A stretch of 64,000 nucleotides of DNA from Fibrobacteria bacterium (GTDB lineage: Bacteria; Fibrobacterota; Chitinivibrionia; Chitinivibrionales; FEN-1185), in NCBI GenBank assembly GCA_037447435.1, contig JBBIGR010000016.1, positions 1-64,000 of the forward strand, written 5' to 3'. Position numbers and translations under genes: made by a program. The first letter of the stretch is position 1; every line of letters begins with the position of its first letter. Shown here piece after piece: positions 1 to 55,035 of this stretch. The notes under the pieces are model-generated. The model did not search any database, was not told where the DNA came from, and worked only from the letters and a program-made list of their open reading frames with translations.

Positions 1-53
1 TGTACCATGCCGGATCAAACGATAATGGGGTGCCGAATGGGCAAGAATAGGCA
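1..53 (-). mobile_element. probable IS21-family terminal end (element continues off the window)
   Basis: Minus strand reads TGCCTATTCTTGCCC-ATTCGGCA-CCCCATTATCGTTTG-ATCCGGCA: a TG start plus tandem internal repeats, as in IS21/IS408-type ends. It interrupts the ORF starting at 151. Confidence 0.45.
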
Positions 54-233
54 TTCACTTCCAATAACACCTGATATTTCTTCTCACCAGATAAATTCTT
101 CCGCTTACGGGGTGGCTGTTGATTAACTGGGGGCAATTGTCGGTTTTCCATTGTGTTCCCTTTTATCCGCCCGGAAAATGTTTAATACCCAATGCTCTTA
201 TAATTTAGTTTAATTAAACCGGGAAAACGGACA
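54..233 (-). mobile_element. possible IS3-family left end with N-terminus of transposase OrfA, interrupted
   Basis: ATG at 151 with upstream AAGGGA gives MENRQLPPVNQQPPRKRKNLSGEKKYQVLLEV, resembling HTH_Tnp_1 N-termini. Candidate TG-starting end at 233. Confidence 0.35.
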
Positions 234-265
234 TGATCTCAGAAACGGCGGGCGATATGCTTCTG

Positions 266-359
266 AGACAATTTCACATTTGCTTCAAGCTGGATGTTGG
301 CTTTGCCGATGTCATCGTCGAAAAAACGCCAGCCGGTAGCTTCGAGGAGCTTGTTTATT
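266..359 (-). repeat. possible degenerate attC site
   Basis: Imperfect hairpin (aagct..gttggc / gccagc..agctt) just downstream of the kinase gene. GTT is present at 353 but no intact AAC core on the other side. Confidence 0.25.
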
Positions 360-395
360 TTTATGCGGGATTTTGCTTCTTTGGACATAACACTC

Positions 396-1505
396 TCAAT
401 TGAAACGGTTTTCAATCTCTGCCACTAAACCTGCAATAGTATTTGTCGTAAACGAATTGTCTTTTCTCCAACCCGAACTCTTCTCCTTTTCTGCATAGTA
501 TACAGAATGTTTGGTATCAAATTGAATTCTATATTTGATTTGTCCGTATCGAACTGGCAAAGCACCTTCAATACGCCAATCATGAATATCATGCCGTATT
601 GCTGTCATTCTTACAAGAAATTCATTGCAAGTGGAAAAACGAGAAGCCGGATTTGTATTGCATGCTTTCTTAATAGTACGGCGGAGAGGATCGCAAACCC
701 ATGGAGGCAAAGTAGAAATATCTACCATCTTGCCTTTCGCAATAAGCTTCTTTATGCATTCTGATGCGAAAAGTTGTTTGTCAATTGAGTCTTCAGTGTT
801 ATGGTATTTAAGGAGCTGTTTAGCATTTAACCAAGCTGCTTCATCATAGGGAAAGTGTCCGCCAAGAAGCTGAAAGAGAAGAATGCCAATTTGATAAAGG
901 TCACCTGTTATTCCGTATCGTTGATTCAAAACTGATTCTGGCGGCCTGTATGCAAGAGAATGACCAGAACCTGGAACCGTCGTGCTTCCTTCCGGTATTT
1001 GTTTAACAGAGCCAAAATCACCAATTAAGGCCCGTCCAGTATTATTGATCAGAATATTTTGAGCCTTAAGGTCGCGGTGGAGAAGGTTGGCAGTATGCAG
1101 GTGGCTTAATCCTGCCAAGATATCACGAACTAACTCAACTGCCCTTAAATTACCTTGAATTCCAGCACTGATTTCTACATCTAAATCACCTCTTTCATAG
1201 AACGGCGTCAAAAAATACGCATAATCATTATTTACAAAAGAGGCATCTTGAATAGGTATTACATTCTCTGAGTTTATTGCTGCTAAATGCCGGGGTTCAG
1301 TATGATAAGTGGGGTCTCCACTCCAATCATAAAATTTTATAGCTACTTTTTGGCCATGAATTCTATTTCGTCCAAAAAAGAGCCATCCACAAGCTCCTTT
1401 CTGGCTCTGCTTCTCTATTTGAATACTTTGTGATAATTCACGCAGTTTATCTTTAATCGGTTGCGGAACGGCAAGAATATCAAGATTTAAGTTTGGCTGG
1501 TTCAT
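396..1505 (-). CDS. Hanks-type Ser/Thr protein kinase
   Basis: VAIK, HRDLKAQN, DFG, YRPPE and DLYQIG motifs; extra C-terminal domain; overlaps the upstream gene by 4 nt. Confidence 0.9.
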   Translation of the reverse strand: MNQPNLNLDILAVPQPIKDKLRELSQSIQIEKQSQKGACGWLFFGRNRIHGQKVAIKFYDWSGDPTYHTEPRHLAAINSENVIPIQDASFVNNDYAYFLTPFYERGDLDVEISAGIQGNLRAVELVRDILAGLSHLHTANLLHRDLKAQNILINNTGRALIGDFGSVKQIPEGSTTVPGSGHSLAYRPPESVLNQRYGITGDLYQIGILLFQLLGGHFPYDEAAWLNAKQLLKYHNTEDSIDKQLFASECIKKLIAKGKMVDISTLPPWVCDPLRRTIKKACNTNPASRFSTCNEFLVRMTAIRHDIHDWRIEGALPVRYGQIKYRIQFDTKHSVYYAEKEKSSGWRKDNSFTTNTIAGLVAEIENRFN

Positions 1506-1912
1506 GGAAGTGCCGCAAATGATGCTTTAAAGGCATCATGTTGATAATTGTTAATATCAGTTGGAATTGTTACTGGCTTTTTTCTTAGCACAGCTGCAAT
1601 TCTATTGGGAGAGATTAACTCTACAGGGCAGCCATCATAAAGTTGAATAATGCCTTCCAGTTTGAAGCTGGTAGCGCCACCAGCGTATTGTCCCTTTTTA
1701 CTGCGTGACTTGATTACGACTTTTTCACACGTATTCTCACGGAGGTAGGCAAAAATGGCTTCGCGGAATGCACGAATTTCGCTCTGATTTGTGTCGTCAG
1801 CACATGTGATTTTACAGACATTGGATGGAATAAGGCTAAAGCCATTCTTATCGCCGTCCAATGTAATCAAACGAGCATCAGAACCAGCTAATTCAATTCC
1901 GCAAATCTTCAT
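1502..1912 (-). CDS. DUF3010 family protein (RNase H-like fold)
   Basis: MKICGIEL.GS start and KG.YAGGATSFKLEGIIQL motif. Confidence 0.8.
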   Translation of the reverse strand: MKICGIELAGSDARLITLDGDKNGFSLIPSNVCKITCADDTNQSEIRAFREAIFAYLRENTCEKVVIKSRSKKGQYAGGATSFKLEGIIQLYDGCPVELISPNRIAAVLRKKPVTIPTDINNYQHDAFKASFAALP

Positions 1913-2080
1913 TTTGACCTCTCTTCAATTGCATTTGCAGCCCTTAGGACGGGGCGGCTGTCTTAAGGGGGGGCGCTCTTTCTGTTTTATCGATTAAAAA
2001 TAGATTTCACCATTCATTATGGCTTTGCTTTTCTTGTCTTCCCGCCGCCGACTATAATTTCATTCTGCCTGGTTTATTTT

Positions 2081-2219
2081 GCACAACGTTTTGCCAATGG
2101 TGAAGTGCCCGGCGATGGGCGAGTGCCAGCGAAGCGCGGACATGAGCCCTCAAACGCCGGGCATTTGCCTTGTGCCGAGGACGGGCTCCGCCTGCCGCAG
2201 CACCATTGGCATGTTAGCG
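2081..2219 (-). repeat. integron attC site (139 bp)
   Basis: Minus strand CGCTAAC ... GTTGTGC with perfect inner stem TGCCAATGGTG/CACCATTGGCA and further nested stems. Confidence 0.85.
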
Positions 2220-2298
2220 GCTGTGTTTGCGCTGCTACCGCAATGTATTAGCCGCCGATTCGTCTTTGCATTCGGATTTTCTCGCGCCCCTCTTTGCA

Positions 2299-3006
2299 CT
2301 ATTCGCCGCCGCATGGAACTGCGCCGGCCTTAGAATCCGCTTTTTTGTCGTGCTCAATGGGTTCAAGTTTCCATGTCATTCTATTGCGGCTCATTCCGTC
2401 CACTTCAAAGTTTATGATTCTGCATCGCTTATCAGATGGATGTTTCACAATGGCAACATGATCAAATGTAAAATCTTTGCAGATAATACCACAGAATCTA
2501 CCCATATATGGTTTGCCGACAAGATGGCTGCATGTACCGTATTCTTTCCCGCAAATAGAACATTGTTGAAACTTAACAATGGTTCCAGAGCTCATAAAAA
2601 CCTGCGGCGGGAAAACCAATTCCTCAATTAATTCCAGACGCTCCAATTGCTGGATAACATGAGAAAAGCCTTTGTGGGCTCTAACAGCATCGGAAGCAGA
2701 CATCTGAGATGCAACTAGCGCATCCCATGCAGAATCTGCCTTCGATTCCTTTAATAGGACCCACATTTTTAATTCATTTATAAGACAATCGCAAACGCAT
2801 TCAAAGCCTAAGAGCAAATTTGCTAAATCCTCATCGCCCTTTTTTATTGCATCGTGCTTTTTCTTTGAGACCTCTTCCAACAAATTGGTTAACCGAGCTT
2901 GAGCTTCAATTTGCAGGGCAGAATCTCTAGTTATAGAAAGGTAAACCTCGCATTCACGAATTATTTCATTATAGGTTTCATAAAATGGAGCTGTTTGGCT
3001 ATTCAT
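2299..3006 (-). CDS. cassette protein: helical N-terminus plus Zn-ribbon domain resembling a phage prohead protease C-terminus
   Basis: 235-aa ORF with CSICG.....CSH..G..Y.G..C and DHVAIV..P motifs; overlaps the upstream gene. Confidence 0.7.
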   Translation of the reverse strand: MNSQTAPFYETYNEIIRECEVYLSITRDSALQIEAQARLTNLLEEVSKKKHDAIKKGDEDLANLLLGFECVCDCLINELKMWVLLKESKADSAWDALVASQMSASDAVRAHKGFSHVIQQLERLELIEELVFPPQVFMSSGTIVKFQQCSICGKEYGTCSHLVGKPYMGRFCGIICKDFTFDHVAIVKHPSDKRCRIINFEVDGMSRNRMTWKLEPIEHDKKADSKAGAVPCGGE

Positions 3007-3493
3007 TACTTGCCCCTTTTATCACATCTGCAAGGTTAATGAGACCTTCTGGTGGTCCTTGGTAGCTTATTTTCTTACATGTTTTTGATTTTGACCTCTC
3101 TACCACAATTTCTATTTTGACCTCTGGTTTACCGGTAATTCCCTTATAAAAATCAGTCACATAATTTGCAATGACGCCAAGAGCAATCGAAATTAAATGT
3201 GGATTGTGTGAAAGGAGGGCTGATGAAACAAATAGCAACGGAGAAACCCATTCAAAGGCATTATTTTGCACATAAGCAGCTTTTTTGTCAGCAGGCAAAA
3301 TATCAGTCAGTGGAATGCTATTATTCCTAAATAGAGTTCGAACAGTCGCAGATTCTGAAGCATGGCGGAATTCATCAATATTGGCCGCGATCTCGAAATT
3401 TAATGGAAGGATGGCAAAATCAGAAACATTATTGCAGCCTGTAGCATAAAGCTTTTCAGGTACGTCAATGTAATCAATAACATTTATCCCCAT
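2999..3493 (-). CDS. hypothetical cassette protein with a hydrophobic hairpin
   Basis: ATG at 3493 with AGGAGG RBS (the longer ORF start runs through the attC-like hairpin); hydrophobic PLLFVSSALL...LISIALGVIANYV. Confidence 0.75.
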   Translation of the reverse strand: MGINVIDYIDVPEKLYATGCNNVSDFAILPLNFEIAANIDEFRHASESATVRTLFRNNSIPLTDILPADKKAAYVQNNAFEWVSPLLFVSSALLSHNPHLISIALGVIANYVTDFYKGITGKPEVKIEIVVERSKSKTCKKISYQGPPEGLINLADVIKGASNE

Positions 3494-3506
3494 GTTTCCT
3501 CCTTTT

Positions 3507-3571
3507 GCATAACTTGGAAATTTAGCAATTTGCATGTGCTTTCTTTCGCGCATGGAACTGCGCCGTTAATG
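3507..3571 (-). repeat. short attC-like site (65 bp)
   Basis: Minus strand CATTAAC ... GTTATGC enclosing an imperfect stem GCAGTT.CATGCGC/GCACATG.AATTGC, located between two genes. Confidence 0.55.
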
Positions 3572-3578
3572 CACCATT

Positions 3579-3899
3579 TCAGACGCCCTTAATTTTTATT
3601 ACGATTGCTTCTCCTATGAAATCGCCTGACCAAAGAAATAGCTTTGTATTGATTGATATTTTGTCCTTAACCTTATCAGGAAATAGAAACACAATTAACA
3701 ATTCATAGGGAATGCCTTTTTTTATTGATAAATTGTCAGATATCCTAATCCGAACATCCCAACCTTCCTTGGTTGATTTCTCATTAATGCTTACAGGACA
3801 ACCAAAGTAGTTAACATTTTTATAAAGATTCTGAAAATCAAAATCTTTATAAAATGTAACGATGGCGGTTATCTGATAATCAATATTTTCAAATATCAT
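3579..3899 (-). CDS. small beta-rich protein, EF-Tu domain-III-like
   Basis: 106 aa with pattern GCP..GWD.RI..I..G..IVFL.P..LFLWSG..IGEA.V. Confidence 0.6.
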   Translation of the reverse strand: MIFENIDYQITAIVTFYKDFDFQNLYKNVNYFGCPVSINEKSTKEGWDVRIRISDNLSIKKGIPYELLIVFLFPDKVKDKISINTKLFLWSGDFIGEAIVIKIKGV

Positions 3900-4059
3900 A
3901 AAATCGCCTTTTCAAACAAAAAGCAGAGATCATATGATTCATTCGTTTCGATTCCTTTTTTCGCCGCATTTATGCGGCTTATTCCGGGGCGCGATTTAGC
4001 TCTCTAATTATTGCCTTTCTCGGCGGCCTATAATTCATTCAGCGCAAACATTGCCGCTA

Positions 4060-4496
4060 ACTACCCCAAAGTATGCTAGCATACTTTGGGGTAAAATGGA
4101 TCGTATTATGCATATTCAGCATTATAAATCTCAAATTTGAATATCGATGATAAATTTATTGTATCTTTTTTCCAACTCCGTTCCTTTTCCCCCAAATCGC
4201 CTTGTCTTAACTTAACCGATTACGCAACTTCCAATAAATAAAATATCCCTTCCCCTTGTTAATATCGTCCTTCAATACCCACAAAGTCAAATAATTCCGC
4301 TTATTATACCAAATCAATCTTAAGTGTAATCAAACGTTGATTACACCTTAACTAACGCAATGCCAATGCTTTATGAAAAATAGGAAAAATTCGAAAACAT
4401 GCCTTCGTGGCGAAATGGAAGGGTATATTGAATGAAAAAGCTGGAGACGCGGACAAAGAAGAAGTGCAAAAAAGAAGGTCGAGAGTTTTGGGTAGT
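4060..4496. repeat. non-coding array-leader module, copy A (attI/Pc-like, with terminal inverted repeats)
   Basis: Direct repeat of 9181-9837; 4246-4380 is identical to 9366-9500; ends are ACTACCCCAAA and TTTTGGGTAGT; abuts core GTTAGCG. Confidence 0.85.
4303..4346 (-). promoter_or_regulatory. candidate cassette promoter (Pc) with overlapping palindromic operator, copy A
   Basis: Minus strand TTGATT-N19-TATAAT with extended -10 TG; perfect inverted repeat GTGTAATCAA-acg-TTGATTACAC over the -35. Confidence 0.55.
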
Positions 4497-4606
4497 GGAC
4501 ATAAAAGTTGAAAAGCCGTTTTATTTAAATCGATTTCAAAATCCGATATAAAATTTTTAAATGAGTTTCTGAAAAAATCTTAGATTTTTTGGTCAGATTT
4601 GAAATT

Positions 4607-4801
4607 TCATGGATTTATCGATCTTAAATCATAATATCTCGTTTCAGGAGGCGATAAGTTATTATTCTCGTCTTCATCATTTGAACCGGAAAAGACATCT
4701 CTTTTAAAGCATCGAGGTAAAATATCATCCCAAAATGTTATTTTGAATAAATCGGATTTTTGTTCGGTTTCGCCGTTAGTTCCGGATTCTTTTATGCGCA
4801 T
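4607..4801 (-). CDS. small hypothetical protein
   Basis: 64-aa ORF overlapping the stop of the upstream gene. Confidence 0.3.
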   Translation of the reverse strand: MRIKESGTNGETEQKSDLFKITFWDDILPRCFKRDVFSGSNDEDENNNLSPPETRYYDLRSINP

Positions 4802-5898
4802 ACTACACCTCTTTGATAAAAGTCAAGGCGTTCTATACATTTATACATGGTATCGCCGCAAGCTTTGGCCAAATTAACATATGCCAATAAATCGGAACTT
4901 GCGGCAAAAGCGCCATTGGACTTAACGCTAATTTTGATCATACCATAAATTTTCGCTTTTTGCTCGTTATTTAATTGATCGCGTTCATTTGAAATTGGCA
5001 CTACGATTATCCCTTTTTGCTCATTGAACCAATCCAACATGTCTTCATCTAACTTGCAAAGCTTTTTATTTTTTAATTCATGATGACCACTTGGATGCTT
5101 AAAAATAGATCCTTCCGCGCGTTTCTTTAATTTATTAGTAACATACTTTTTTGTGTTTGAAACAATAAAACATCCCGATTCGCTTCCAAGAATATGCGAT
5201 AATGCATACCGATAGATATAGTGCTCTTTTAGCAATATGGGGCGTGAGGTTTTAGTTTCTTGAGGTTTGCTGCTACAAACACAAATAGTATCAAGTTGTG
5301 TATCGCTTTCTTCCAATGCATTAAAAATTTTTGTAACGGTAATTACCTGTTTTTTGTTGCCGCTTTTGTCATATTCGATGCAGTCCGCGAATAATTGGGA
5401 TACATCCGGAGGCGGAAATATTTTTACTACAACATGTGTTTCTTCTTGCGTTGCCTTATGAATGGCCTCTAATAAATTCATTGCGCAATCTTTTGCCAAA
5501 CTTGTTCTCGTTTCATTTATATCAATTCCTATTTTGTTTGTGCCTTTATTTTTTGCTTCATGCCAATGATCGAATAAATACAAATATTTTTCCCTCATTG
5601 TATGACAAATAACATGTGCCCGGCTGGCAAATTCCTGCAAATCATAACCGCTTTGGAGCTTAAATTTTATCATCTTTCCTGCAAGTCCAAGGCATAATAG
5701 AATTAAAGAGAATACAAGGTACCAAAAAAAATGAATTTGATCGGGTGTAGTTAAAACTTTTAAAGTGCTGATTATCGAACCTATTAAGCCGAATACCGAA
5801 CTAAAAATTTCAATTATGCTCACCGGCTTTGAAATTAGAAATCGGCCAAGATGGTGGCTTATTTTATTCACATTAATCCTTGTTTTATTAAATAGCAA
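4792..5898 (-). CDS. membrane-anchored protein with a C-terminal GAF-like domain
   Basis: Two N-terminal hydrophobic helices; GIIVVPI...IYGMIKIS...NGAF...LAKACGD GAF-type ending; TTG start is uncertain. Confidence 0.65.
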   Translation of the reverse strand: MLFNKTRINVNKISHHLGRFLISKPVSIIEIFSSVFGLIGSIISTLKVLTTPDQIHFFWYLVFSLILLCLGLAGKMIKFKLQSGYDLQEFASRAHVICHTMREKYLYLFDHWHEAKNKGTNKIGIDINETRTSLAKDCAMNLLEAIHKATQEETHVVVKIFPPPDVSQLFADCIEYDKSGNKKQVITVTKIFNALEESDTQLDTICVCSSKPQETKTSRPILLKEHYIYRYALSHILGSESGCFIVSNTKKYVTNKLKKRAEGSIFKHPSGHHELKNKKLCKLDEDMLDWFNEQKGIIVVPISNERDQLNNEQKAKIYGMIKISVKSNGAFAASSDLLAYVNLAKACGDTMYKCIERLDFYQRGVVCA

Positions 5899-6170
5899 AA
5901 TGAGAAAATTAAAGTTTTATTTTCAATTATTAAAAACCTAAATTTTAAATTTAACAAAGAATGCAAGTCGTTAGGATTTTAATATTTTAAATTTGCGAGA
6001 TTGTAAGTTTATTTGCCGGTGAATGTTTTAACATAAATATTGGCAGGTAATTAAAACAACAAAAACAATAAAGATATTTTTTAAGTGTAAAGAAATCTTA
6101 TCGACAATGCGTACCAAGAGCTCCGGCAATTTGCCGGTTACCACGCGGACTGTTTTGGAAAACGTCTCAC

Positions 6171-6259
6171 CCGTGCCTTCGAGAGCCTCAGGCGACGGGT
6201 TGTTATTCTATCTGGTGGCCTTGATTTTATCCGGTGGCTGAGGCTCTCGAAGCCACCGG
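6171..6259. repeat. inverted pair of REP-like palindromes
   Basis: CTTCGAGAGCCTCAG (6177) and CTGAGGCTCTCGAAG (6238), each inside its own hairpin. Confidence 0.75.
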
Positions 6260-6361
6260 CAGGGAGTTCCTCTTTCATGAACCATTACTGCGAATTCCAA
6301 TAAACCTTTTGTTTCTTTTTGTTTTTTCTTCTCTGCATCTTATTATAGAGAAATTTATTGA

Positions 6362-6511
6362 TACCAACGTTTCACGCACTGCCGAAGTTGCCGCATTGGC
6401 GACATGACGGTGCCAGCGAAGCGCGGACGGTGACGGAGGCATCAAACGCTGGCAATTTGCCGAAGGCCGAGGACGGGCTTCGCCCGCCGCAGCACAAAGC
6501 GGCTGTTGTAA
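6362..6511 (-). repeat. integron attC site (150 bp)
   Basis: Minus strand TTACAAC ... GTTGGTA; shares GTGCCAGCGAAGCGCGGAC and GCCGAGGACGGGCT.CGCC.GCCGCAGCAC with the 2081 site. Confidence 0.8.
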
Positions 6512-6662
6512 GCAGTGAATTTGCACCCTACCATAGTATTTCTTTTCGCCGCCATCTATGATTTTCATCCTACTTCGTGCCCGATTTCCTCGCCGGGACA
6601 CATGACGTGTGGAGGCGATTTTGCTGAAATGCTGCAAATGATGATTGGTACTGAAAGATACC

Positions 6663-7469
6663 CTAATTCCCTTCGTTATTTTTGTTAGAGAAAAATGGGT
6701 GATTTCCAAAAAATTTGACTGGTAGTGGGATATCGCATGAAATATCCATACTCTTATCAAATATCTCGAATGAAATAGACGCATATTTCGCGGATCTGTA
6801 CATAAAATCAGGTTCAATAGGAATTTTATGTATTTTTGGAACCAAATGCCATTTGTGCATAGGATTTGTGCATGGGGTTGTATTGAAAATACCGATGTGT
6901 TGCCACATGTTATGAGCTACGCCACTGAACGGTACATACGCATGCTTATAAATAGATTCCCTCCCAATCTCCTTTGCCATTTCTCTTGCTGTCATTCCAG
7001 ACCACGCCCCGACATTTACTTCAGTTGCCCAATCAGCGAGCTGACCATTTAGCCATTCTTTCCTAATTTTTATCAATTTATTAAGCTGTTCTGCATCGGA
7101 AGGTTCTGACTCTTCTTGCAATGCTTCTTCAAGAAATTCTATAAATAATTTCTCCTGACCAAGGCCGTATAGTACAAATTTTTTGCACCTCTGTAGAGGG
7201 TCTGCAAGTACCCAACCGAGAGAAATATATGCATCAATTTGACAGCGAAGGAACAATGGAGCAACATGTGCATTCCAGATTGAAGGGGCTTTTACCATTT
7301 CAATTGTTAATGTTGCTTGGCGAGATAGAAGCGCACCGATGCATTCATGTACCCAATTATCATAAATATCGGGCTTGACTGCCTCCCATCGTTTCTCAAA
7401 GCCCAATTGGACATTATCGATATAATCTTTTATAAATGAATCTAACGACTTTTCGGCGTTTTCAGCCAT
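6663..7469 (-). CDS. DUF5677-like (HEPN-like) protein
   Basis: LFLRCQIDAYISL and Y..FSGVAH.MW motifs; all-helical character. Confidence 0.65.
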   Translation of the reverse strand: MAENAEKSLDSFIKDYIDNVQLGFEKRWEAVKPDIYDNWVHECIGALLSRQATLTIEMVKAPSIWNAHVAPLFLRCQIDAYISLGWVLADPLQRCKKFVLYGLGQEKLFIEFLEEALQEESEPSDAEQLNKLIKIRKEWLNGQLADWATEVNVGAWSGMTAREMAKEIGRESIYKHAYVPFSGVAHNMWQHIGIFNTTPCTNPMHKWHLVPKIHKIPIEPDFMYRSAKYASISFEIFDKSMDISCDIPLPVKFFGNHPFFSNKNNEGN

Positions 7470-8208
7470 CAGAATTCTCCTTTACATTCACTTCGCATGC
7501 AGAAAGATGGAAATTATGATTCCAAAAATATTTGGACCAGGTAAAGGTTAATTGGAGCATTGCAAATTCTGCCATTGCACTTGATCGCACAAATCCAGCT
7601 GCACGTTTTGCTTCTTCAGAGTCTGGTGAATTAAAAATAGAATTAATATCGGGCAGATCAATCGTAGAATTAAGCATAATTGCTTTTGTTACAAAGCGAT
7701 ATAGCAGCATTGAGGCATATAAGGCTATTCCCGGAGTTTCGTATTTATTTAGGGCTTTCTTTAAGCAAACTTTCAATCGATCAATTAATTCGCTTTTGTT
7801 ATAAACATTTTCTGGAGGACCAAAAAATTTGATTGGGCATTCATCATAAAGCAGGACTAAGGGAGCGATAGCATTTTGAACTTTACCTAATATGCCTTTT
7901 TTATTTAGTGATTCCGTTAAAGCTAATTTTTGCTCCTGCGTAAATGTGCTGTAAGAGGAAATAAGCGCGAAATTTTGGGGTATTTCTTGATTTTGAATGT
8001 CCTTTGCCGTAACGAATATTTCTTGCTGAATTCTTGCGCTTGGTATATAACCAAAAAGCTCATTCAGAAGAGCAATCCACACAAGTTCAGGAAGTATATC
8101 ATTCACATAGGTTACATTGAAATTCATCTTTGGAATTTGCAGCATCGGGGGGATAAATCGCTTGCCTATTTTTTTATGCCCCTGGAGAATTTGCTTTTTC
8201 TTTTTCAT
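7462..8208 (-). CDS. hypothetical protein, coupled partner of the DUF5677-like gene
   Basis: Likely start MKKKKQILQGHKKIGKRFIPP at 8208; overlaps the next gene by 8 nt. Confidence 0.75.
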   Translation of the reverse strand: MKKKKQILQGHKKIGKRFIPPMLQIPKMNFNVTYVNDILPELVWIALLNELFGYIPSARIQQEIFVTAKDIQNQEIPQNFALISSYSTFTQEQKLALTESLNKKGILGKVQNAIAPLVLLYDECPIKFFGPPENVYNKSELIDRLKVCLKKALNKYETPGIALYASMLLYRFVTKAIMLNSTIDLPDINSIFNSPDSEEAKRAAGFVRSSAMAEFAMLQLTFTWSKYFWNHNFHLSACEVNVKENSDG

Positions 8209-8343
8209 TTTCGGATTATCCTTTTTAGGCTTCTCTAACCCGCATGGACGCGGGTGATTCCTCGGGCACAAAACAAACGATTAAATCTGGTCACCTAAAT
8301 CTTCTTAGGCGGCGTCTATAATTGATTGGTGCAAATTTATTGC

Positions 8344-8423
8344 TTACAACGTTTTGCCGTATGCCTGCTGAAGCTGACTACACCTGACTTTGATGCAGCT
8401 TTGGCAGGCTACGGCTGTTAGCT
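8344..8423 (-). repeat. integron attC site (80 bp)
   Basis: Minus strand AGCTAAC-AGCCGTAGCCTGC ... GCAGGCATACGGC-AAAAC-GTTGTAA with an extrahelical base, 6 nt after the stop codon. Confidence 0.9.
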
Positions 8424-8429
8424 GCTGAA

Positions 8430-9101
8430 TTACCGCTGCTTTCCTCCTGCGCCGCTCTTCTGCCTTATTCTTTTCTTAGTTTCTTTTAATGCCTTCTTGA
8501 TTTTAGCTGGTGTTAACAAGTGAGATTTGCAGTAGTCACAATATGGCAACTTCTTTTTGGCTCTATTTGTTAGTTCTTCAATTCTATTAGGATTTATTAT
8601 TTTTACCTTACAATAGTTACATTTGAAAGAAATCTCATCTGTTTTCCAGAAACCAATGGTGACCTGATACTTCTTTTCCTTTTTAACGAAAGTTATTTCT
8701 GTGTCCATTATTTCATTTTCAGCCCATAATCGAGAAAAAAGGATTGATACATCAAGATTCTTTACTCCATAGAAATCGCATTGATATAGAACTGGGTCTT
8801 TCTGGTATTGTTCAGCGGAAAGAACCGGCAATTTCACCTTATTTCTTATATCATTGAAATCTTCACGGTCACTATCACGATAAATTAGCATTGATATTTG
8901 CTTTGCTTTTAAATCCAAAATGAATTTGCTTACTCCGCCTTCATGAAAGAAGGAATCTCCGAAATATTTCAGAAGATCCTTTCCACCTGAGAAATCAACA
9001 GTATTCAAGTAAGCGTAATATTGTACCACTGCTTTGAAATAGTTTTTAGGCGATCTGTCTTCTTCATCATAACGGAATTCTTTATGTAAAGTGAATTTCA
9101 T
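8430..9101 (-). CDS. hypothetical cassette protein
   Basis: 223-aa ORF with a purine-rich RBS region; FHEG motif and C-terminal CxxC pairs. Confidence 0.75.
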   Translation of the reverse strand: MKFTLHKEFRYDEEDRSPKNYFKAVVQYYAYLNTVDFSGGKDLLKYFGDSFFHEGGVSKFILDLKAKQISMLIYRDSDREDFNDIRNKVKLPVLSAEQYQKDPVLYQCDFYGVKNLDVSILFSRLWAENEIMDTEITFVKKEKKYQVTIGFWKTDEISFKCNYCKVKIINPNRIEELTNRAKKKLPYCDYCKSHLLTPAKIKKALKETKKRIRQKSGAGGKQR

Positions 9102-9180
9102 TCTTCGGCCTACCTTTTTCCCTTTTATTTGCCTTTCTTAGCGGCGCATCTTCCTTCTTGCAGCGGTAATCTTGCAGCTA

Positions 9181-9837
9181 ACTACCGAAAGTATGCTAGC
9201 AGACTTTCGTCAAAATGACATCTATTATACATATTCGGAATTATAAATCTCAAATTTGAATATCGATGAAAAATTTATTGGATCTTTTTTCCAACTCCAT
9301 TCCTCTTCCCCCAAATAGCCTTGTCTTAACTTAATCTATTACGCAATCTCCACCAAACCCAAACTTCCCTTCCCCTTGTTAATATCGTCCTTCAATACCC
9401 ACAAAGTCAAATAATTCCGCTTATTATACCAAATCAATCTTAAGTGTAATCAAACGTTGATTACACCTTAACTAACGCAATGCCAATGCTTTATGAAAAA
9501 AAGGAAAAATTCGAAAACATGCCGTCGTGGCGAAACGGAAGGGTATATTCAATCAAAATTGTTTTTTTTTAAGTTATTCTTTTTTCCACACGCGAAGGAA
9601 AAAGACTTTTCGAATTTTTCAAAAAAGCCTTCATCGATGCCCAATATAAAAAAGATTGCAAAATTACCTGACAAGAATTGGAATACCAAATCGAGCACTT
9701 GGTGAGCGACTATAAGTAATTCATATTCTTTAGAGAAGGAAGATAAGGGGATCTTCAATATTTGGGCGCTAAGGTGAAAAAGCCGGAGACGCTGACAAAG
9801 AAGAAGTGCAAAGAGAAGATCGGGAGTTTTGGGTAGT
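9181..9837. repeat. non-coding array-leader module, copy B (with about 220 bp extra internal sequence)
   Basis: Aligns to 4060-4435 over 9181-9555 and to 4433-4496 over 9775-9837; abuts core GTTAGCT. Confidence 0.85.
9423..9466 (-). promoter_or_regulatory. candidate cassette promoter (Pc) with palindromic operator, copy B
   Basis: Identical to 4303-4346. Confidence 0.55.
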
Positions 9838-9838
9838 C

Positions 9839-10516
9839 TTATCCTATTGCTTCAAAACATTTGTCAATTTGATTCTTTGTAAATTGAACAATTAGCTTTC
9901 CTAGGTGAAAAACTTCAGTTGAAAATAATTTGGGTTGTTCATTATCAATCTCAAAATTAATTTCAGAGTTATGAATTGCTGATTGGATCTCAAGGGGCAT
10001 TTTCCTAATATCGAAACCACCCTTTATTTTAAAATCTATATAATCTTTGAAGCTAATACATTTTGAAACTTCTTCGGAATTAGGCTTTTCTTGAAAAAAG
10101 TGATAATAAAGCCAAATTTCAAATGATGGATTACTTTGTGCTACAAACCAACTTTTATGTTTATCGTTTTTTTCTTTTACATAAGATTTTAATTCGTTTA
10201 TTTTGTTATCTTCATTCCACCTATCGGTATCTATAACGAACCATACCTCATCTTCATATTCTTTACTTAGTTTGTAAGTAGCATCAATTTCATCATTGCC
10301 AAAAAATCGTGCATTTGCATTATTCTTTAGTTTTTCCGGATCAGTTTTACCGTCTTCACTTGGAATTGGTATTATATCAATATTTGAAGATAAGCCTTGG
10401 AAAAAAATAAAATAATCGACTTCCCTTTTCTGACCTTCGCAAAAAATATAGATTTTTTTAGCGGTTTTAAAAGGTTCAAGCTTCTGATACAATTTATTAC
10501 GAGTTAAGTATCTCAT
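9839..10516 (-). CDS. rloB: RloB family protein (AbiLii-like, TOPRIM-like)
   Basis: IFCEG..E..YF, VWFVIDTD, SNPSFEIWL.YHF and STEV..L motifs. Confidence 0.9.
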   Translation of the reverse strand: MRYLTRNKLYQKLEPFKTAKKIYIFCEGQKREVDYFIFFQGLSSNIDIIPIPSEDGKTDPEKLKNNANARFFGNDEIDATYKLSKEYEDEVWFVIDTDRWNEDNKINELKSYVKEKNDKHKSWFVAQSNPSFEIWLYYHFFQEKPNSEEVSKCISFKDYIDFKIKGGFDIRKMPLEIQSAIHNSEINFEIDNEQPKLFSTEVFHLGKLIVQFTKNQIDKCFEAIG

Positions 10517-10520
10517 AGGG

Positions 10521-11858
10521 TTACCAATTTAAATCTTTAAAGTTGGCTAAAAATGGAATTCCTCCATATCTACCATTTAAATATCCTTTTTCAATATCAA
10601 TGGTATTATGAATTTTGAAGTCACTTAAAGAATAAATTTTAGATGATCCATCACAATCTTTTTGAGTGAACCATATTTCATCGGGTCTGATAAATTTCTG
10701 GTCAAGTAAGTTTGATTCGTGGGTTGTAAAAATTAATTGCCCTTTAACATTTTCATCGAGAGCTATTTTAGAAATTATTTCTTTTATTGTAATTGGATGA
10801 ATACTTCTTTCAATTTCATCAATTAAAATTACCTTGTTATTACAAATGATTCCTTGAAAAGCAGGAATATAATCAATTAATCTTTTGGTCCCATCCGATT
10901 CTTGACTTAAATTAAATTCGATATCAACATCATTTAAATTTTTATGACTTGTAATTAGCCTTTTAATCACCATTTCATTATTTTCGTAAACCGCTGTTAT
11001 TTCTTCACCTGTTTCTCCATTAGTAAGTGCTAAATGATTTTTTTGAGAATTTTTTAAATTTTCTAACATGTCTTTTACGAATTGTCCATTCTCTTTATCA
11101 AAAAAATCCTCAGATTTCTTTTTTTCTATTTCAATTTTTGAAATTCCAGTATTTAAACTTGAAATAAAGTTATTAGCAAAGTCTTTTGTATCTGATTCTT
11201 TATCAAAGAGATGTGCAATGCAAATAGGTTTTGAATCTGGTTTAATAATAACTAATGTATTTTTAAACCAATCAAAAGCAAATTGAATACTTTTAAAATC
11301 TTCTGGATATTTTTTACTTAAGAATGTAATTAATAAATCATCTTTTTGAATTAATTTATCAGATAACACTTCTGTGAAGAGTTTTTCCTTATCAGTTTTA
11401 TAATACTCCTTATAAAAAACAATATTTTTTAAACCATCTTCGCAAGTTCTTTCAAAAATCAAAGTGTCTTCATCTTTCGAACTTTCGGCTAAATACTCGT
11501 TTAAAATTTCATTGTGATCAAAAGTCAGAGTATAATAATAAGCTTTTCCGTTAGAAATAAATTCAATCGCAAGTGAAATAGGCAAAGAATAATTTTTATC
11601 ATCAAGTTTAAATTTTAAATCGTCGGAATTTATTATGAGCTTCCCATTTAAAACCATTTTCCTTAATAGAGAAATAGATTTTATCAAGTTGGATTTACCA
11701 GAGCCATTTGCACCATAAATAGCACTATATCGTAAAATCTCAAAATTTCCACTTTTTATTTTATGATGCTCTAGTCTTTGGGTTTTATTCGGGAATAAAT
11801 TAAACTCTGTTTCGGATTTAAAAGAAAAAATGTTTTTGGCAACGAAGCTTATTAACAT
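10521..11858 (-). CDS. rloA: RloA/AbiLi-like ABC-type (AAA_21) ATPase
   Basis: GANGSGKS Walker A, ESDGT signature, LIDEIERSIHP, FTTH, YLNGRYGGIP. Confidence 0.9.
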   Translation of the reverse strand: MLISFVAKNIFSFKSETEFNLFPNKTQRLEHHKIKSGNFEILRYSAIYGANGSGKSNLIKSISLLRKMVLNGKLIINSDDLKFKLDDKNYSLPISLAIEFISNGKAYYYTLTFDHNEILNEYLAESSKDEDTLIFERTCEDGLKNIVFYKEYYKTDKEKLFTEVLSDKLIQKDDLLITFLSKKYPEDFKSIQFAFDWFKNTLVIIKPDSKPICIAHLFDKESDTKDFANNFISSLNTGISKIEIEKKKSEDFFDKENGQFVKDMLENLKNSQKNHLALTNGETGEEITAVYENNEMVIKRLITSHKNLNDVDIEFNLSQESDGTKRLIDYIPAFQGIICNNKVILIDEIERSIHPITIKEIISKIALDENVKGQLIFTTHESNLLDQKFIRPDEIWFTQKDCDGSSKIYSLSDFKIHNTIDIEKGYLNGRYGGIPFLANFKDLNW

Positions 11859-12044
11859 ATTAATACCTTTCCGTGGGAATTTCACGCCAAATCCCAGTTA
11901 AAATAGTATTTTGCATTGCATTAATCAAAATATACAATGGAAACGTGAATTTGACACGGTTAATTGCTATAAATAACAATTGAAATTCTTTTATAAATAG
12001 TTAAAAATTCCGGATATTCGTTGCATTATTATTCTACCATAGCA

Positions 12045-12068
12045 AGGAGCCCCTTTTACGAGGCTCCT
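12045..12068 (-). terminator. hairpin downstream of the DUF6261-like gene
   Basis: AGGAGCC...GGCTCCT stem; weak U-tract. Confidence 0.45.
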
Positions 12069-12081
12069 CATTGTTTCCCCC

Positions 12082-12858
12082 TCACCCGGGAGTGGAATTA
12101 TCCGCTGCGGGTTTGGGAGCCGGTTCGGGTTTCGGTGAAGATGATGCCGAATTTGAACGGGTTTTCCGGCTATGCGCTTTTGTCATTATATCGGTGATGG
12201 CTTCATTGAGTTCGGAAATTATTCCGCTAAATTCCGAATCGGTTTCGGCTTGTGCATCGACATAATGGAGTATCTTGGTAATATGATACCCGACCTCATT
12301 ACATTGGCTCCGTGCATCGGACGATGGCGCTTCTTTGGCCTCGGCAGCTATTTTGGTTTGATACGATTCCTTGTATGCATCCTGCGCATCGGCCAGCGAT
12401 TTCACGATATCCGCTATTCCAAGTTGGGTGACAAAATTCTGCGCAATGGGGTCCTTGAATTTTTCCAATATGGAAAGTATCGCCCCGGATTTCTTTGTGG
12501 CCCCGGACTTGTCGGCCCGGTTTCCTTTGATCAAGGAAAGAAGATATTCCGCACCGGTTTTCGTATCGGGCCTCACTTCGATGCCGGAAGATCCTTCAAG
12601 ACAATTATACAGGCTGCGTAAGGCGACATTACGGGCCTCGTCTTTTTTCGCAAGATCTTCGGTAAAATGTTTGTCCCTCATTGTTTTAAGCATCATCTCC
12701 AACTTGGAAGACGAGCCCATCATTTTCACACATTGGCTTTTCACGAACGGATCTTGTATCGCATTTCGGGAAAAGATCTCGTCGAATATGTCTGCGCAAG
12801 CGACAAATTCGCTCGGGACAAGCAATGAAGTCGAAAATTCTTTTATTTCCTTATTCAT
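12082..12858 (-). CDS. DUF6261-like helical protein
   Basis: T..L...D..RN.AL..L, LGI..IV..L..AQ..Y and I.ELN..I patterns with a Pro-rich tail; AAGGGAG RBS before ATG 12858. Confidence 0.7.
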   Translation of the reverse strand: MNKEIKEFSTSLLVPSEFVACADIFDEIFSRNAIQDPFVKSQCVKMMGSSSKLEMMLKTMRDKHFTEDLAKKDEARNVALRSLYNCLEGSSGIEVRPDTKTGAEYLLSLIKGNRADKSGATKKSGAILSILEKFKDPIAQNFVTQLGIADIVKSLADAQDAYKESYQTKIAAEAKEAPSSDARSQCNEVGYHITKILHYVDAQAETDSEFSGIISELNEAITDIMTKAHSRKTRSNSASSSPKPEPAPKPAADNSTPG

Positions 12859-13028
12859 GCAAACTCCCTTCTCACAAAAAATGGTAAATGATTTTTTAAA
12901 AACAGTTGTTTTATACTGCAAATACCATACCGATTTTTTTATGAAGAAAATCGGTCATGCAATGACATTAAAAATTTGAAAGGGAACAAATATCATCACG
13001 CAAGCGTATAAAATTTCTCGGGAATGCG

Positions 13029-13443
13029 AAAACGTACCTTGCAGGGCCATAAAAAAAATGTAGAAGGTCAAACAGTACCTTGCACGGCCAGCTCATTATT
13101 GCGGATAAGAATGCAAGACCTTGTTTGGACAATTCCATTATTGGAGTTGCGAAAACAAGGTCTCGCACGGCCATTTCATTATTGGAGTTGCGAATTCAGT
13201 ACCTTGTTTGGCGAACTGCATTATTGCAAATAAGAAAACAGTACCTCGCAGGACCATTAAAAATTTTGCGGAGTCAAAAACAGACCTCGCAAGGGCATCA
13301 AAAATTTTGCGGAGTCAAAAACGGACCTCGCAGGACCATCAAAAATTTTGGGGAATAAAAAACGGACCTCGCAAGGGCTTCAAAAATTCTGCGGAATAAA
13401 AAACGGACCTTACAAGGCCAACAAAAATTTTGCGGATTAAAAA
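13029..13443. repeat. degenerate tandem repeat, 10 units of 41-42 bp
   Basis: ACCT anchor at 13036, 13077, 13118, 13160 (variant GTCT), 13201, 13243, 13284, 13325, 13366, 13407. Confidence 0.9.
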
Positions 13444-13529
13444 TTGTTATGGTTTTTGTTGTTGTGGTATTTGAATTCAAAATGTGATTTCCGGATTCCT
13501 AATTTCCGATCCCCATTTTACGATTTTCC

Positions 13530-13557
13530 GTAGAGACGTAGCGCGCTACGTCTCTAC
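13530..13557. repeat. GTAG-type REP palindrome
   Basis: Perfect palindrome GTAGAGACGTAGCGCGCTACGTCTCTAC; relatives at 15593 and 48835. Confidence 0.85.
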
Positions 13558-13749
13558 ATTAAAAAAAATCCATAAAAAAATATTCCCGCGGCATTTTTAA
13601 ATGAAAATATTTATAAATTTCCCCTCTCATTTTCATTTTGATACGCAAATTGTCAATTAATACAAGGATGATACGGAAACGGTTTTCGCATTCTTTGTAA
13701 AAAAATTCCAAATTATGGGAAATAGGGAGGTCGAACGATATGATTAAAT

Positions 13750-13797
13750 AAAAAACCCCTCAATTATGACATTGTTGCCAAGATTAAGGGGTTTTTT
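13750..13797 (-). terminator. hairpin at the tRNA 3' flank
   Basis: AAAAAACCCCT ... AGGGGTTTTTT inverted repeat directly after CCA. Confidence 0.55.
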
Positions 13798-13872
13798 GGC
13801 TGGAGTGGAGGGATTCGAACCCCCGACCCAGTGGTTAACAGCCACTTGCTCTGCCGACTGAGCTACACTCCA
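13797..13872 (-). tRNA. tRNA-Asn(GTT)
   Basis: Acceptor stem TGGAGTG/CACTCCA + G + CCA; anticodon arm GTGG-CTGTTAA-CCAC; GTTCGAATC T-loop; 76 nt. Confidence 0.97.
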
Positions 13873-14065
13873 GTAAGCTATAGAATAGCCCCATAAAAAT
13901 ATATATTCTTTCCGTAATAGTCAAAAGTTTTTAACGGCCATTGGACATTTCCCTAACCTCTGGCCCCTCTCCCAATAATAATTTATAATGAATGCGCGTT
14001 TATACTAACGGCGGAATTTTAGACCGGTTTATATATAATACATATAATAAAGGAAGAAACGGAAC

Positions 14066-52425: not shown

Positions 52426-54255
52426 ATGAACGACAAAGAATTACGCGATACTCTCGATCGCTTTCCGCAAAGCCCGGGCGTGTATATCATGCGCGATTCG
52501 GGCAACGTGCCGTTATACATCGGCAAGGCCATCAACCTGAAAAACAGGGTAAGATCCTATTTTTCCGACAAGCACGAAGACCGGCCGCATATTCCTGTTA
52601 TGCTTCGGCGCATGCATCACATCGATTGGATCGCCACCAACACCGAAACCGAAGCGCTCATCCTCGAAGCGAATCTTATACGTAAACACATACCCCATTT
52701 CAACATCGATTTAAAAGACGACAAACATTACCCCTATATAAAAATCACGGTGCAGGAGCCGTTTCCGCGTTTGCTCGTCGTGCGGCGGGTCGACAAAGAC
52801 AAGGCGCGGTATTTCGGGCCCTATACCGATGTCCGCGCCATGCGCAGGTTGGTCCATTTCGGCCGACGGATTTTCAAGATACGCGACTGCAACAAAAACC
52901 TGCCGCTCAAACATCCGATACGGCCTTGCGTCAATTATGAGATCGGGCGGTGCAGCGGCGCGTGCGGCGGAAAAATATCCGAGGCCGACTACCGGAACAA
53001 TATCGACATGCTCATGCGGTTCTTATCGGGAAAGCGCAAAGACATCGTCAACGAATTGCAACAGAAAATGGAATGCGCCTCCTCGCAGCTTTTGTTCGAA
53101 GAGGCCGCGAATATCCGCGACCAGATACAGCTGATCAACGATGCGTCGAAATTGCAGCAGGTGGATTTGGCAGCTCCGCAAATCGACTGCGACGTGTTCG
53201 GCATTTATAAAGGCGACCGGTCGTTGTGTTTGGCCGCGTTGCACGTGACCGAAGGGCTGCTTTTGTCGGCGCGGCATTTTACTTTTGATAAAAATGCCTG
53301 GGAATCGACGTCCGAAGGGCTGGAACCGCTGCTGCTCCAGTATTATCTCAATGCAAACGAGCAGCCGGCAAAGGAAATAATAATCAGCGACGCAGCCGGT
53401 ATCGTCATCGATGCGGCGCTCATTTCCAGGGCGTTCGAAACGCAATTCGGGTACAAGGTCGAAATTACGGTTCCGCAAAAAGGGCCAAAGCGTATCCTCG
53501 CCGACATGGCGATAAAAAACGCCCGGTTATATCTGATGCAGAAATTGCCGTCCAACGCCATGGACGATCTGAGCGATATGGAGAAACTGTTAAAGCTTCC
53601 CCGTTTCCCGCATGTCATCGAGGCATTCGATATTTCCAATCTGGGCGAAAGCAATGCGGTTGCGGGCATGGTGCGTTTCGTCGACGGGCAGCCGGACAAA
53701 TCGGGGTACCGCAGGTACAAGATTAAAACCGTGACCGGTCAAAACGATTTCGCAATGATGATGGAAGTGGTCACCAGGCGTCTGACCCGTCAAAGTGAAG
53801 AAGGCCAGCAATTTGCGGATTTGTATCTCATCGACGGCGGGCTGGGGCAATTGCACAGCGCGATGGTTCCGCTCGCAAGTTTCAAAAACCCGCCCATGAT
53901 CATCTCCCTTGCTAAACAGGAAGAGCTGGTGTTTTCGCCGTACGGCGACGCGCCGGTGCAGCTCGGATCTACCCACCCGGTACGGAAACTGTTGGAACGC
54001 ATACGCGACGAAGTACACCGGTTCGCCATCACCTTTCACCGGGGCTTGCGCAATAAGCAAGCAAGCGCCTCGGCCTTGCAGTCCATTCCCGGCATGGGCA
54101 AAAAGCGGGTGGTCGAGCTGCTCAAGCATTTCGGCTCGGTAAAAAGGGCCTCCGAAGCCACCGAAGACGAAATTGCGTCGGTAAAGGGCATTCCGAAGAA
54201 TTTGGCCAAGGAAATTAAGGCGTTTTTGGAAGAGCTTAAGAACAAGCAGAGTTGA
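52426..54255 (+). CDS. uvrC: excinuclease ABC subunit C
   Basis: PGVY...YIGKA GIY-YIG domain, FDISN, IDGGLGQ, RDEVHRFA, C-terminal HhH. Confidence 0.97.
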   Translation: MNDKELRDTLDRFPQSPGVYIMRDSGNVPLYIGKAINLKNRVRSYFSDKHEDRPHIPVMLRRMHHIDWIATNTETEALILEANLIRKHIPHFNIDLKDDKHYPYIKITVQEPFPRLLVVRRVDKDKARYFGPYTDVRAMRRLVHFGRRIFKIRDCNKNLPLKHPIRPCVNYEIGRCSGACGGKISEADYRNNIDMLMRFLSGKRKDIVNELQQKMECASSQLLFEEAANIRDQIQLINDASKLQQVDLAAPQIDCDVFGIYKGDRSLCLAALHVTEGLLLSARHFTFDKNAWESTSEGLEPLLLQYYLNANEQPAKEIIISDAAGIVIDAALISRAFETQFGYKVEITVPQKGPKRILADMAIKNARLYLMQKLPSNAMDDLSDMEKLLKLPRFPHVIEAFDISNLGESNAVAGMVRFVDGQPDKSGYRRYKIKTVTGQNDFAMMMEVVTRRLTRQSEEGQQFADLYLIDGGLGQLHSAMVPLASFKNPPMIISLAKQEELVFSPYGDAPVQLGSTHPVRKLLERIRDEVHRFAITFHRGLRNKQASASALQSIPGMGKKRVVELLKHFGSVKRASEATEDEIASVKGIPKNLAKEIKAFLEELKNKQS

Positions 54256-55035
54256 TTACCACCCCTTAAGCGTCTGCATCGCGTCCCGTACCGACATGAC
54301 GCTCAAATGCTGATCCTTGCAATACGACAAAAAGTCTTTGTAAGTCGATTCCTTGCACCAGTAAATCGGTAACGGCGGGGCAGTGTCGGGCTGGATCACG
54401 TGAAAGCCGATGATCACCAGCGGGGCGCCGAGGCGCTTTGCCTCTTCGATGCGGGCGACGATGTCGGCGGCGGTAAAGTTGCCCGTGACCGCAAAATAAC
54501 CGAGTTCCTGCCTGTCCACGCCGTCCAGATAATAATAATCGTGCGACGAGCGTATGTTGACAAAATATTGTTTGATCATACTTTTGACCGTGTCGTTGTA
54601 CATGCCGGACGCATAGGCGAAACTTTGATGCGACAGGCCGTTTTGCTCGAGGAAATCGAAACTGGCCTTAATGCGCCAGGCGGCAGAGTCGGGCGGCATG
54701 GCCGTGAGATTATCATGTTCATAGCCGTGGCCGCCGCTTTCCCAGCCATACCATTCCATTGTTTTTTCCTGGTCGAGCGTGACATTGCCGGCCGCTCCCA
54801 AGTAGCTGTTCGGGAAAAAATGCGTCGCGGTCCAGGCGGAATCAGTTGCTTGCATCAAGCGAAAACCGGTATTGTAAATGGATGCGTCTGCATCGTCGAA
54901 GGTCACGACCACGATCGGAGCGCCTTGACTTTGTTCGAACGGGACAAGGGCATTTGAACATGAAAAGAGAGTGGGTAAAAGTATTGCGAGAAGTAAAATG
55001 CCAATAGGGCCAAAGGATGAAATGATTATTTTCAT
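54256..55035 (-). CDS. polysaccharide deacetylase family lipoprotein
   Basis: VTFDDA, GWE.GGH...H, FAY..G, IGFH; lipobox LFSC. Confidence 0.82.
   Translation of the reverse strand: MKIIISSFGPIGILLLAILLPTLFSCSNALVPFEQSQGAPIVVVTFDDADASIYNTGFRLMQATDSAWTATHFFPNSYLGAAGNVTLDQEKTMEWYGWESGGHGYEHDNLTAMPPDSAAWRIKASFDFLEQNGLSHQSFAYASGMYNDTVKSMIKQYFVNIRSSHDYYYLDGVDRQELGYFAVTGNFTAADIVARIEEAKRLGAPLVIIGFHVIQPDTAPPLPIYWCKESTYKDFLSYCKDQHLSVMSVRDAMQTLKGW

Follow-up and report, generated by a model that had tools for sequence, protein, structure and literature searches.

What kind of element holds a single gene between two ends that are complementary to each other over some 29 bases? The question is raised by a 223-amino-acid (aa) open reading frame (ORF) on the minus strand of contig C16 (JBBIGR010000016.1) of a Fibrobacteria bacterium, whose assembly (GCA_037447435.1) comprises 5.05 Mb in 96 contigs. 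The first 64 kb of this contig were analysed and are called the window below. The original prediction for this stretch had described an inverted three-part motif beginning at 8417 on the plus strand and at 9182 on the minus strand, and it was correct in every detail. The plus strand reads GTTAGCTGC (8417-8425), tga, ATTACCGCTGC (8429-8439), 8 nt and TGCGCCGCT (8448-8456); the minus strand reads GTTAGCTGC (9182-9174), aag, ATTACCGCTGC (9170-9160), 11 nt and TGCGCCGCT (9148-9140). With up to three mismatches allowed, the 23-nt pattern had exactly two matches in the window, both with 0 mismatches; the chance expectation was 0.01, and two or more matches were obtained in 0 of 100 shuffles. We conclude, with a probability of about 0.8, that the segment 8350-9181 (minus strand) is an integron-type gene cassette and that its paired ends are the halves of the outer stem of its own recombination site. 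The cluster in which it stands lacks an integrase and resembles a CALIN (cluster of attC sites lacking an integrase). Such a cassette is known in kind; the novelty is the long three-helix pairing of its ends.

The reading is carried by the anatomy of the ends, their recurrence, the covariation of the helices, the conservation of the arms irrespective of reading frame and the difference from canonical cassettes within the genus. Within the 832-nt cassette the order of elements is leader, 223-aa ORF, trailer and attC core, and its parts are laid out as follows.

8350-9181, minus strand: the whole cassette, 832 nt, beginning with the TT (9181) of the GTT upstream and ending on the G (8350) of the GTT that follows.
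9140-9182, minus strand: 5' arm (leader), with the R' box GTTAGCTGC (9182-9174), a 3-nt spacer, helix 2 ATTACCGCTGC (9170-9160), an 11-nt loop and helix 3 TGCGCCGCT (9148-9140).
8430-9101, minus strand: cargo ORF of 223 aa, the sole long ORF between the arms, with two CxxC pairs near the C-terminus.
8417-8456, minus strand: 3' arm (trailer), with helix 3' AGCGGCGCA (8456-8448), an 8-nt loop, helix 2' GCAGCGGTAAT (8439-8429), a 3-nt spacer and the R'' box GCAGCTAAC (8425-8417); it encodes SGAGGKQR-stop.
8342-8425, minus strand: attC-like site C, 84 nt, made of R'', a 66-nt core (12-bp L stem with one extrahelical A), AAAAC and an R' box, GTTGTAAGC, which belongs to the next cassette.

The complementarity of the ends is thus divided among helices of 9 bp (the R box), 11 bp and 9 bp. 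Helix 1 leads to helix 2 through a 3-nt internal loop, and helix 2 to helix 3 through a loop of 8 nt on one side and 11 nt on the other. The cassette is one member of a co-oriented array on the minus strand, which holds three complete cassettes and partial ones; the others, and their sites, are these.

6505-8350, minus strand: cassette 2, with two ORFs that jointly resemble a split DitA and an identical three-helix layout of the ends.
6360-6513, minus strand: attC-like site B, 154 nt, long-core type.
2213-4061, minus strand: cassette 1, with ORFs of 106, 184 and 235 aa and likewise three-helix paired ends.
2079-2221, minus strand: attC-like site A, 143 nt, long-core type.

Between cassettes stand imperfect palindromes, 84-154 nt long, with AAC and GTT at their limits and an inner stem of 11-13 bp in each; the long cores were searched with an nhmmer profile. 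By the definition given in the accessible part of PMC5027507, an attC site has R and L boxes, a crossover in a conserved triplet and a length of 57-141 nt. Site C (84 nt) lies inside this range, and A (143 nt) and B (154 nt) lie slightly over it. Set against RYYYAAC and GTTRRRY, the R'' boxes (AGCTAAC, CGCTAAC, TTACAAC) and R' boxes (GTTGTAA, GTTGTGC, GTTGGTA) keep the triplets and fit two or three of the four degenerate positions. The cassette limits were placed from the canonical G/TT crossover (the slash marks the cut) and from the point where homology starts with the other copies of an upstream sequence, here called the platform, and with L014, a 2.8-kb metagenome-assembled contig that codes for a homologue of the 223-aa protein at 53% identity. 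Homology among the platform copies ends at GTA/GTT and homology with L014 begins at GTT, so that the two agree with the G/TT boundary within a few nt. A search of positions 1-14,000 against Rfam returned no family except the tRNA described below.

To what extent is the pairing a property of these cassettes? In a genome-wide scan, only 3 of 14,662 pairs of GTT and AAC lying 150-6000 nt apart reached 9/9 in helix 1 together with at least 10/11 in helix 2. All three (2213-4061, 6505-8350 and 8417-9182) fall in the low-G+C island that opens the window, and the label 'third cassette' that had been given to the 8417-9182 element is apt, since these alone pass. The three-helix architecture was also found in all three consecutive cassettes of L014, and two sister genomes each yielded one further paired cassette (loci L024 and L025). 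Ten cassettes of this type are complete, with a recognisable junction at either end, and 8 of these 10 are paired (window 3/3, L014 3/3, L024 1/2, L025 1/1, contig C30 of this genome 0/1). The paired 4.1-kb cassette of L025 (5840-9966; G003:C1) carries an EcoRI-type methylase, two GmrSD-N proteins, one of them with HNH, and a 202-aa ORF, so that its cargo is a whole restriction-modification-like set. The pairing is specific to each cassette: cognate leader/trailer duplexes had computed energies of -20.5 to -39.3 kcal/mol, and non-cognate ones a mean of -9.7 (standard deviation (sd) 4.2). The sole strong non-cognate duplex (-23.5) joins the leader of the 8350-9181 cassette to the trailer of its homologue on L014.

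Comparison with this homologous cassette (L014a) revealed compensatory changes in helix 1 (A-T to G-C) and in helix 2 (G-C to A-T); the inner end of helix 2 also has one unpaired change. The arms of cassette 1 are likewise homologous to those of a cassette in the sister genome G003, and two compensatory changes separate their R boxes. Helix 3 varies among cassettes as GCCGCC with GGCGGC, TGCGCCGCT with AGCGGCGCA and GTTTGCGCCG with CGGCGCAAAC, and in a cassette of the sister genome G001 its strands are swapped, the G-rich strand being on the leader side. The arms are also the best-conserved part between the 8350-9181 cassette and L014a: their identities are 87% and 80.5%, compared with 63.7% for the ORF, 53% for the rest of the 5' untranslated region and 50% for the core.

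We then computed the folding of the cassette junctions with DNA parameters, both in the form that they would take in an excised circle and in the hybrid form present in the array. The values (kcal/mol, sense/antisense strand) were as follows.

Cassette 8350-9181: circle -47.2 / -51.1, array -27.2 / -28.6.
Cassette 2 (6505-8350): circle -55.2 / -56.1, array -38.0 / -37.7.
Cassette 1 (2213-4061): circle -70.8 / -73.5, array -49.7 / -45.3.

By this computation the junction gains about 17-28 kcal/mol of stability in the circle relative to the array, and in the circle form it folds as one continuous hairpin.

Compensatory changes suit RNA as well as DNA, and both arms lie on the transcribed strand, flanking the ORF. 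The pairing could accordingly act in the message, with leader and trailer enclosing it for stability or for processing of a polycistron by a double-strand-specific RNase. Helix 2 of the G003 cassette even has a sense-strand T opposite G, which would be a G-U wobble in RNA and is an A/C mismatch on the other DNA strand. This is a single wobble example, however, and each ribosome would open the stem, because the stop codon and eight codons are part of it. Moreover, helix 1 begins exactly at the GTT and AAC triplets and the helices stack on the R box in the circle; a role in RNA needs neither. We consider such a role improbable.

How the ORF comes to end within the arm bears on the origin of the cassette. 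The last eight codons and the stop (SGAGGKQR-stop) occupy 8456-8430, from the outer edge of helix 3' to a TAA inside helix 2', so the stop codon and the last eight residues do come from the repeat, as had been stated. Of 229 candidates, five were homologues at E <= 0.001, the window's own protein included, and their alignment diverges past about residue 205. Helix 2' is read in phase 2 in the 223-aa ORF (KQR-stop) and in phase 0 in L014a, whose ORF crosses R'' to reach the core (AVVTKQPTQQG-stop). In its third frame the arm DNA reads SSGNSAAN, which matches the tail SSGNTAAN of the homologue P0003 at 7 of 8 residues (P0003 was compared as protein only). Since homologues use the same arm DNA in all three frames, the tail represents read-through into conserved site DNA and not conserved protein. 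A homologue on a Pelotomaculum contig with no visible cassette features (L016) stops directly after the conserved part. Non-cassette homologues had been named as the check on the repeat-encoded tail, and L016 ends before it; the homologues have no conserved tail. Read-through of the gene into hairpin DNA, as originally proposed, is thus borne out by the three-frame use of the arm and by the loss of alignment after about residue 205.

The same proposal held that empty hairpin scaffolds pre-exist in the genome and that genes were captured into their loop before being read through. This part was not supported. It has in its favour that the ORF does extend into the arm and that leaders and trailers are homologous across unrelated cargo: the leaders of a cassette on contig C58 of this genome and of one in G003 are 90.6% identical over 96 nt with no tblastx match between the cargos, and six cassettes from three genomes of the genus share the leader motif AAT-N10-12-AATNAATTATAG. 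Among chromosomal integrons, however, shared site sequences on unrelated cargo are the rule. Arms and gene diverge together among homologous cassettes, and the arms of one cassette are separated from those of the next by an AAC- and GTT-bounded palindromic core, which is the layout of an attC array and not of nested hairpins; each pair of arms is the recombination-site stem of its own cassette, parted into halves. A search for the empty scaffolds themselves, as cargo-less arms 46-400 nt apart in this genome and eight loci, gave four chance-level matches in 3440 pairs, none of them convincing. We regard capture into pre-existing scaffolds as highly improbable. The leader motif was present in 3 of the 8 genomes of the family and 3 of the 81 of the order, this genome included, so the exact motif is genus-restricted. 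Homologous leaders on unrelated cargo suggest that a common long site may join different genes when cassettes form; they fit a lineage-specific long site attached to different genes and do not require empty scaffolds.

A gene between 43-nt inverted repeats is also the layout of transposons with terminal inverted repeats and of invertible segments with their crossover sites, but either is hardly credible here: the flanks (...ACGGCT and TACCGA...) hold no target-site duplication, the arm sequence is private to each cassette with no shared recognition sequence, the arms stand directly beside AAC...GTT palindromes of a tandem array, and no transposase domain or tyrosine recombinase was found in the island (serine invertases were not searched separately). 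For inversion the material compared was contigs, in which a minor orientation does not show. Xer-dependent dif modules (pdif) are defined by conserved 28-bp XerC-spacer-XerD sites inverted around each module. We rejected them as a candidate, the arms differing between cassettes with only GTT and AAT in common.

How do these cassettes compare with integron cassettes already described? With classical cassettes and their attC sites (class 1 59-base elements and Vibrio repeats, recombined by IntI on folded single strands) they share tandem co-oriented ORFs, a cassette start complementary to its own R'', an ORF that overlaps the site and an IntI encoded in the genome. They also share the palindromes bounded by AAC and GTT, the R box and an L stem with an extrahelical base, as far as these features are set out in PMC5027507. 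Unlike the classical sites, they have two extra helices (11 bp and 9 bp) beyond the R box, an asymmetric spacer, the extrahelical base on the other arm and a leader of which about 50-130 nt is conserved from cassette to cassette; they have no adjacent integrase. Bouvier et al. (2009) reported that in most cassettes the complementarity of the start to R'' extends over 9-11 consecutive nucleotides (PMC2727003, as given in the portion available). Helix 1 (9 bp), like the 8-9 nt of canonical sister cassettes, corresponds to that extension, but here the pairing continues to about 29 bp over 40-43 nt per arm, in three helices, all of them covarying, with internal loops between them. Word searches of the open-access literature, for the parts of it that they reach, found no description of end pairing beyond 9-11 nt, which is not proof of its absence; a multistem motif has been proposed as a possible unusual attC in the consulted section of PMC5737381.

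A further contrast is with the genus itself. This genome encodes an IntI on contig C10 (95-1390; 436 bits against TIGR02249, cut-off 265); its other contigs carry no more than intI fragments. The gene lies 94 nt from the edge of C10, so the array of the resident integron is not assembled. An IntI above the TIGR02249 cut-off is encoded in 7 of the 8 genomes of the family. Arrays adjacent to it in sister genomes (G003:C30, G005:C18 and G001:C39) are of the same kind as the array in the window and show cassette-specific R-box complementarity, but they have a uniform 134-136-nt site with CCTAAC and GTTAGG boxes. As a control, all four complete canonical cassettes beside IntI were found to pair over 8-9 nt only, at -9.1 to -10.5 kcal/mol. 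The canonical 134-136-nt site type is absent from this assembly, and a search for the long-stem site type in the IntI-adjacent arrays of the relatives found none.

Several points weigh against the cassette interpretation. Neither C16 nor the surroundings of the two other arrays of this site type, on C30 and C58, yielded a tyrosine recombinase, which is why we assign the cluster to the integrase-less kind, and loci L023-L025 yielded none either. The L024 and L025 examples came from a scan that required pairing. Two of the ten complete cassettes are unpaired: a rearranged 5-kb unit on L024 and the C30 cassette at 53689-54473, whose status rests on direct reading of its ends and which matches in GTTGT only. 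The geometry of the core deviates as well. Where the textbook site leaves 5-6 nt unpaired on each arm (PMC5027507), the spacer here has 1 nt on the arm of R'' and 4-5 nt on that of R', and in the sense strand the L' arm, not L'', carries the single extrahelical base (A here, G in L014). This reversed geometry was read at 8351-8416 of the window and at 887-936 of L014. Such deviations in spacer and extrahelical base suggest that polarity or enzyme may differ from the classical case. No excision product, empty site or deletion junction was seen in the assembled contigs, material that is uninformative either way. Finally, it is possible that template switching between the arms of a quasi-palindrome keeps them complementary without selection. 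Such a neutral process would lower the standing of any functional reading and leave the anatomical one unaffected.

The extrahelical base gave no calibration of polarity, the canonical sites of the sister genomes folding too irregularly; the polarity used here rests on gene orientation, on the promoter-bearing platform with its junction and on the break of homology at GTT. The C30 unit (G000:C30:53689-54473) has the same site type and may be a fusion or a decayed cassette. Two contig joints, 6445 to 9361 and 9552 to 9775, trace to paralogous copies elsewhere in the genome.

In the mechanism that we propose, excision of the cassette as a circle would make trailer, attC core and leader contiguous. 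They would then fold into one hairpin consisting of the L stem, the 9-bp R box, the 3-nt internal loop, the 11-bp helix, the 8/11-nt loop and the 9-bp helix. Strand exchange at G/TT in the R box on insertion would split this stem, sending one half to the 5' leader and leaving the other behind the gene. No stop of its own ends the gene ahead of the site, and it is read for eight codons into the 3' half, up to the TAA inside helix 2'. We infer the exact crossover point and which recombinase acts on the sites. The long stem would stabilise the folding of the free cassette and the hybrid sites of the array would fold poorly, which would give a stable array and a highly recombinogenic circle. A bolder version, which we hold only tentatively and consider rather doubtful, is that the three-helix extension is a functional clamp that sets apart a distinct class of integron-like cassettes with defence genes. 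Their sites would fold fully only after excision, and would have a different polarity or be served by a non-classical recombinase; leader and trailer would be a unit grafted at cassette birth. If sites do fold fully only once excised, arrays would be locked and free cassettes highly recombinogenic.

The function of the cargo can be approached only loosely. The 223-aa protein belongs to no family in Pfam, NCBIfam or PADLOC, and its Atlas matches are all below 0.9. Its fold model has a predicted local distance difference test (pLDDT) score of 73.5; the best PDB match is 8owu_E (E 6e-4, template-modelling score 0.61 on the target), a 115-residue chain of a polymorphic-toxin/immunity complex. This weak match to a predicted fold can serve as a lead only.

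Upstream of the cassettes lie the platform copies, which distinguish this array from an ordinary CALIN. The likeness to a CALIN is that no integrase stands within the contig region while IntI is encoded elsewhere in the genome; the difference is that two promoter-bearing platform copies with a hairpin-TA/GTT junction precede the first cassettes, like a duplicated attI without intI.

9183-9560, minus strand: platform copy upstream of the 8350-9181 cassette, with a hairpin at 9185-9207, then TA/GTT, an attI-like junction.
4062-4438: second platform copy, about 380 nt, before cassette 1, 88-91% identical to 9183-9560.

A third copy, on C58, likewise ends in GTA/GTT before a cassette, and the homology of all three stops there. 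The copy at 9183-9560 contains a 23-nt palindrome (9444-9466) and promoter-like sites facing the cassette; a promoter scan of the platform found 6 sites where 4.0 (sd 2.1) were expected, which is not significant. Platform DNA was found in none of the rest of the family (1 of 8 genomes, this one).

The palindrome is part of a module of about 180 nt, in which a perfect 23-nt palindrome, GTGTAATCAAACGTTGATTACAC, is accompanied by promoter-like sites; in the window it occurs at 9444-9466 and 4324-4346. The module was also seen on contigs C58, C30, C93, C15, C2, C26 and C44 of this genome, 5' of differing defence-like operons. On C26 the next ORF resembles a Cas3 HD domain, and a DUF6261-like gene usually lies upstream of the module. 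The module resembles an operator shared across a defence regulon. Beside the platform, at 9560-9837 and 4433-4496 (both plus strand), lie the decayed 3' ends of a nucleotidyltransferase-HEPN gene, with a full copy on C95; on C95, C17 and C28 this gene comes after intI fragments. These remnants suggest that the platform once adjoined an integrase.

The island itself spans bases 1-13,800, at 27-41% G+C compared with about 50% beyond, and every sizeable ORF in it is on the minus strand. It is closed by the following gene.

13797-13872: tRNA-Asn gene, at the island end.

Its cargo is defence-like: an AbiLi/AbiLii pair (9839-11885), the DitA-matching ORF pair of cassette 2 (6663-8271) and a mad6/PD-T4-6-like kinase (396-1505). 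The adjacent ORFs of 269 and 268 aa at 6663-8271 (minus strand) each match one half of the PADLOC DitA model (N-terminal and C-terminal), so that cassette 2 holds one defence protein in split form. Between a DUF6261 gene (12082-12921) and the tRNA-Asn gene, tandem repeats with units of 83 nt (2.3 copies) and 41 nt (5.2 copies) occupy 13070-13443, and comparable repeat arrays adjoin DUF6261 paralogues on C65, C20 and C92. Positions 1-258 of the window carry two different insertion-sequence termini of 52-54 nt; more than 20 contigs have ends identical to them. The contig break, and with it the cut in the array at the window start, is therefore attributed to insertion-sequence ends common to many contig ends.

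What do these cassettes mean for the biology of integrons in this family? The making of integron cassettes is described as still largely unknown in the part of PMC5371416 consulted. What decides whether cassettes stay or move is also poorly known. In the cassettes analysed here, a conserved and covarying part of the site extends 40-130 nt past the crossover on both sides, on unrelated cargo, which offers a handle on both cassette birth and mobility: it marks the unit that would need to join a gene for a cassette to arise, and it leads one to expect that the site folds very differently in the array and after excision. Standard attC models end at the R boxes and so miss part of this site. For annotation, the overlap of such ORFs with the long site accounts for their odd, unconserved C-terminal tails.

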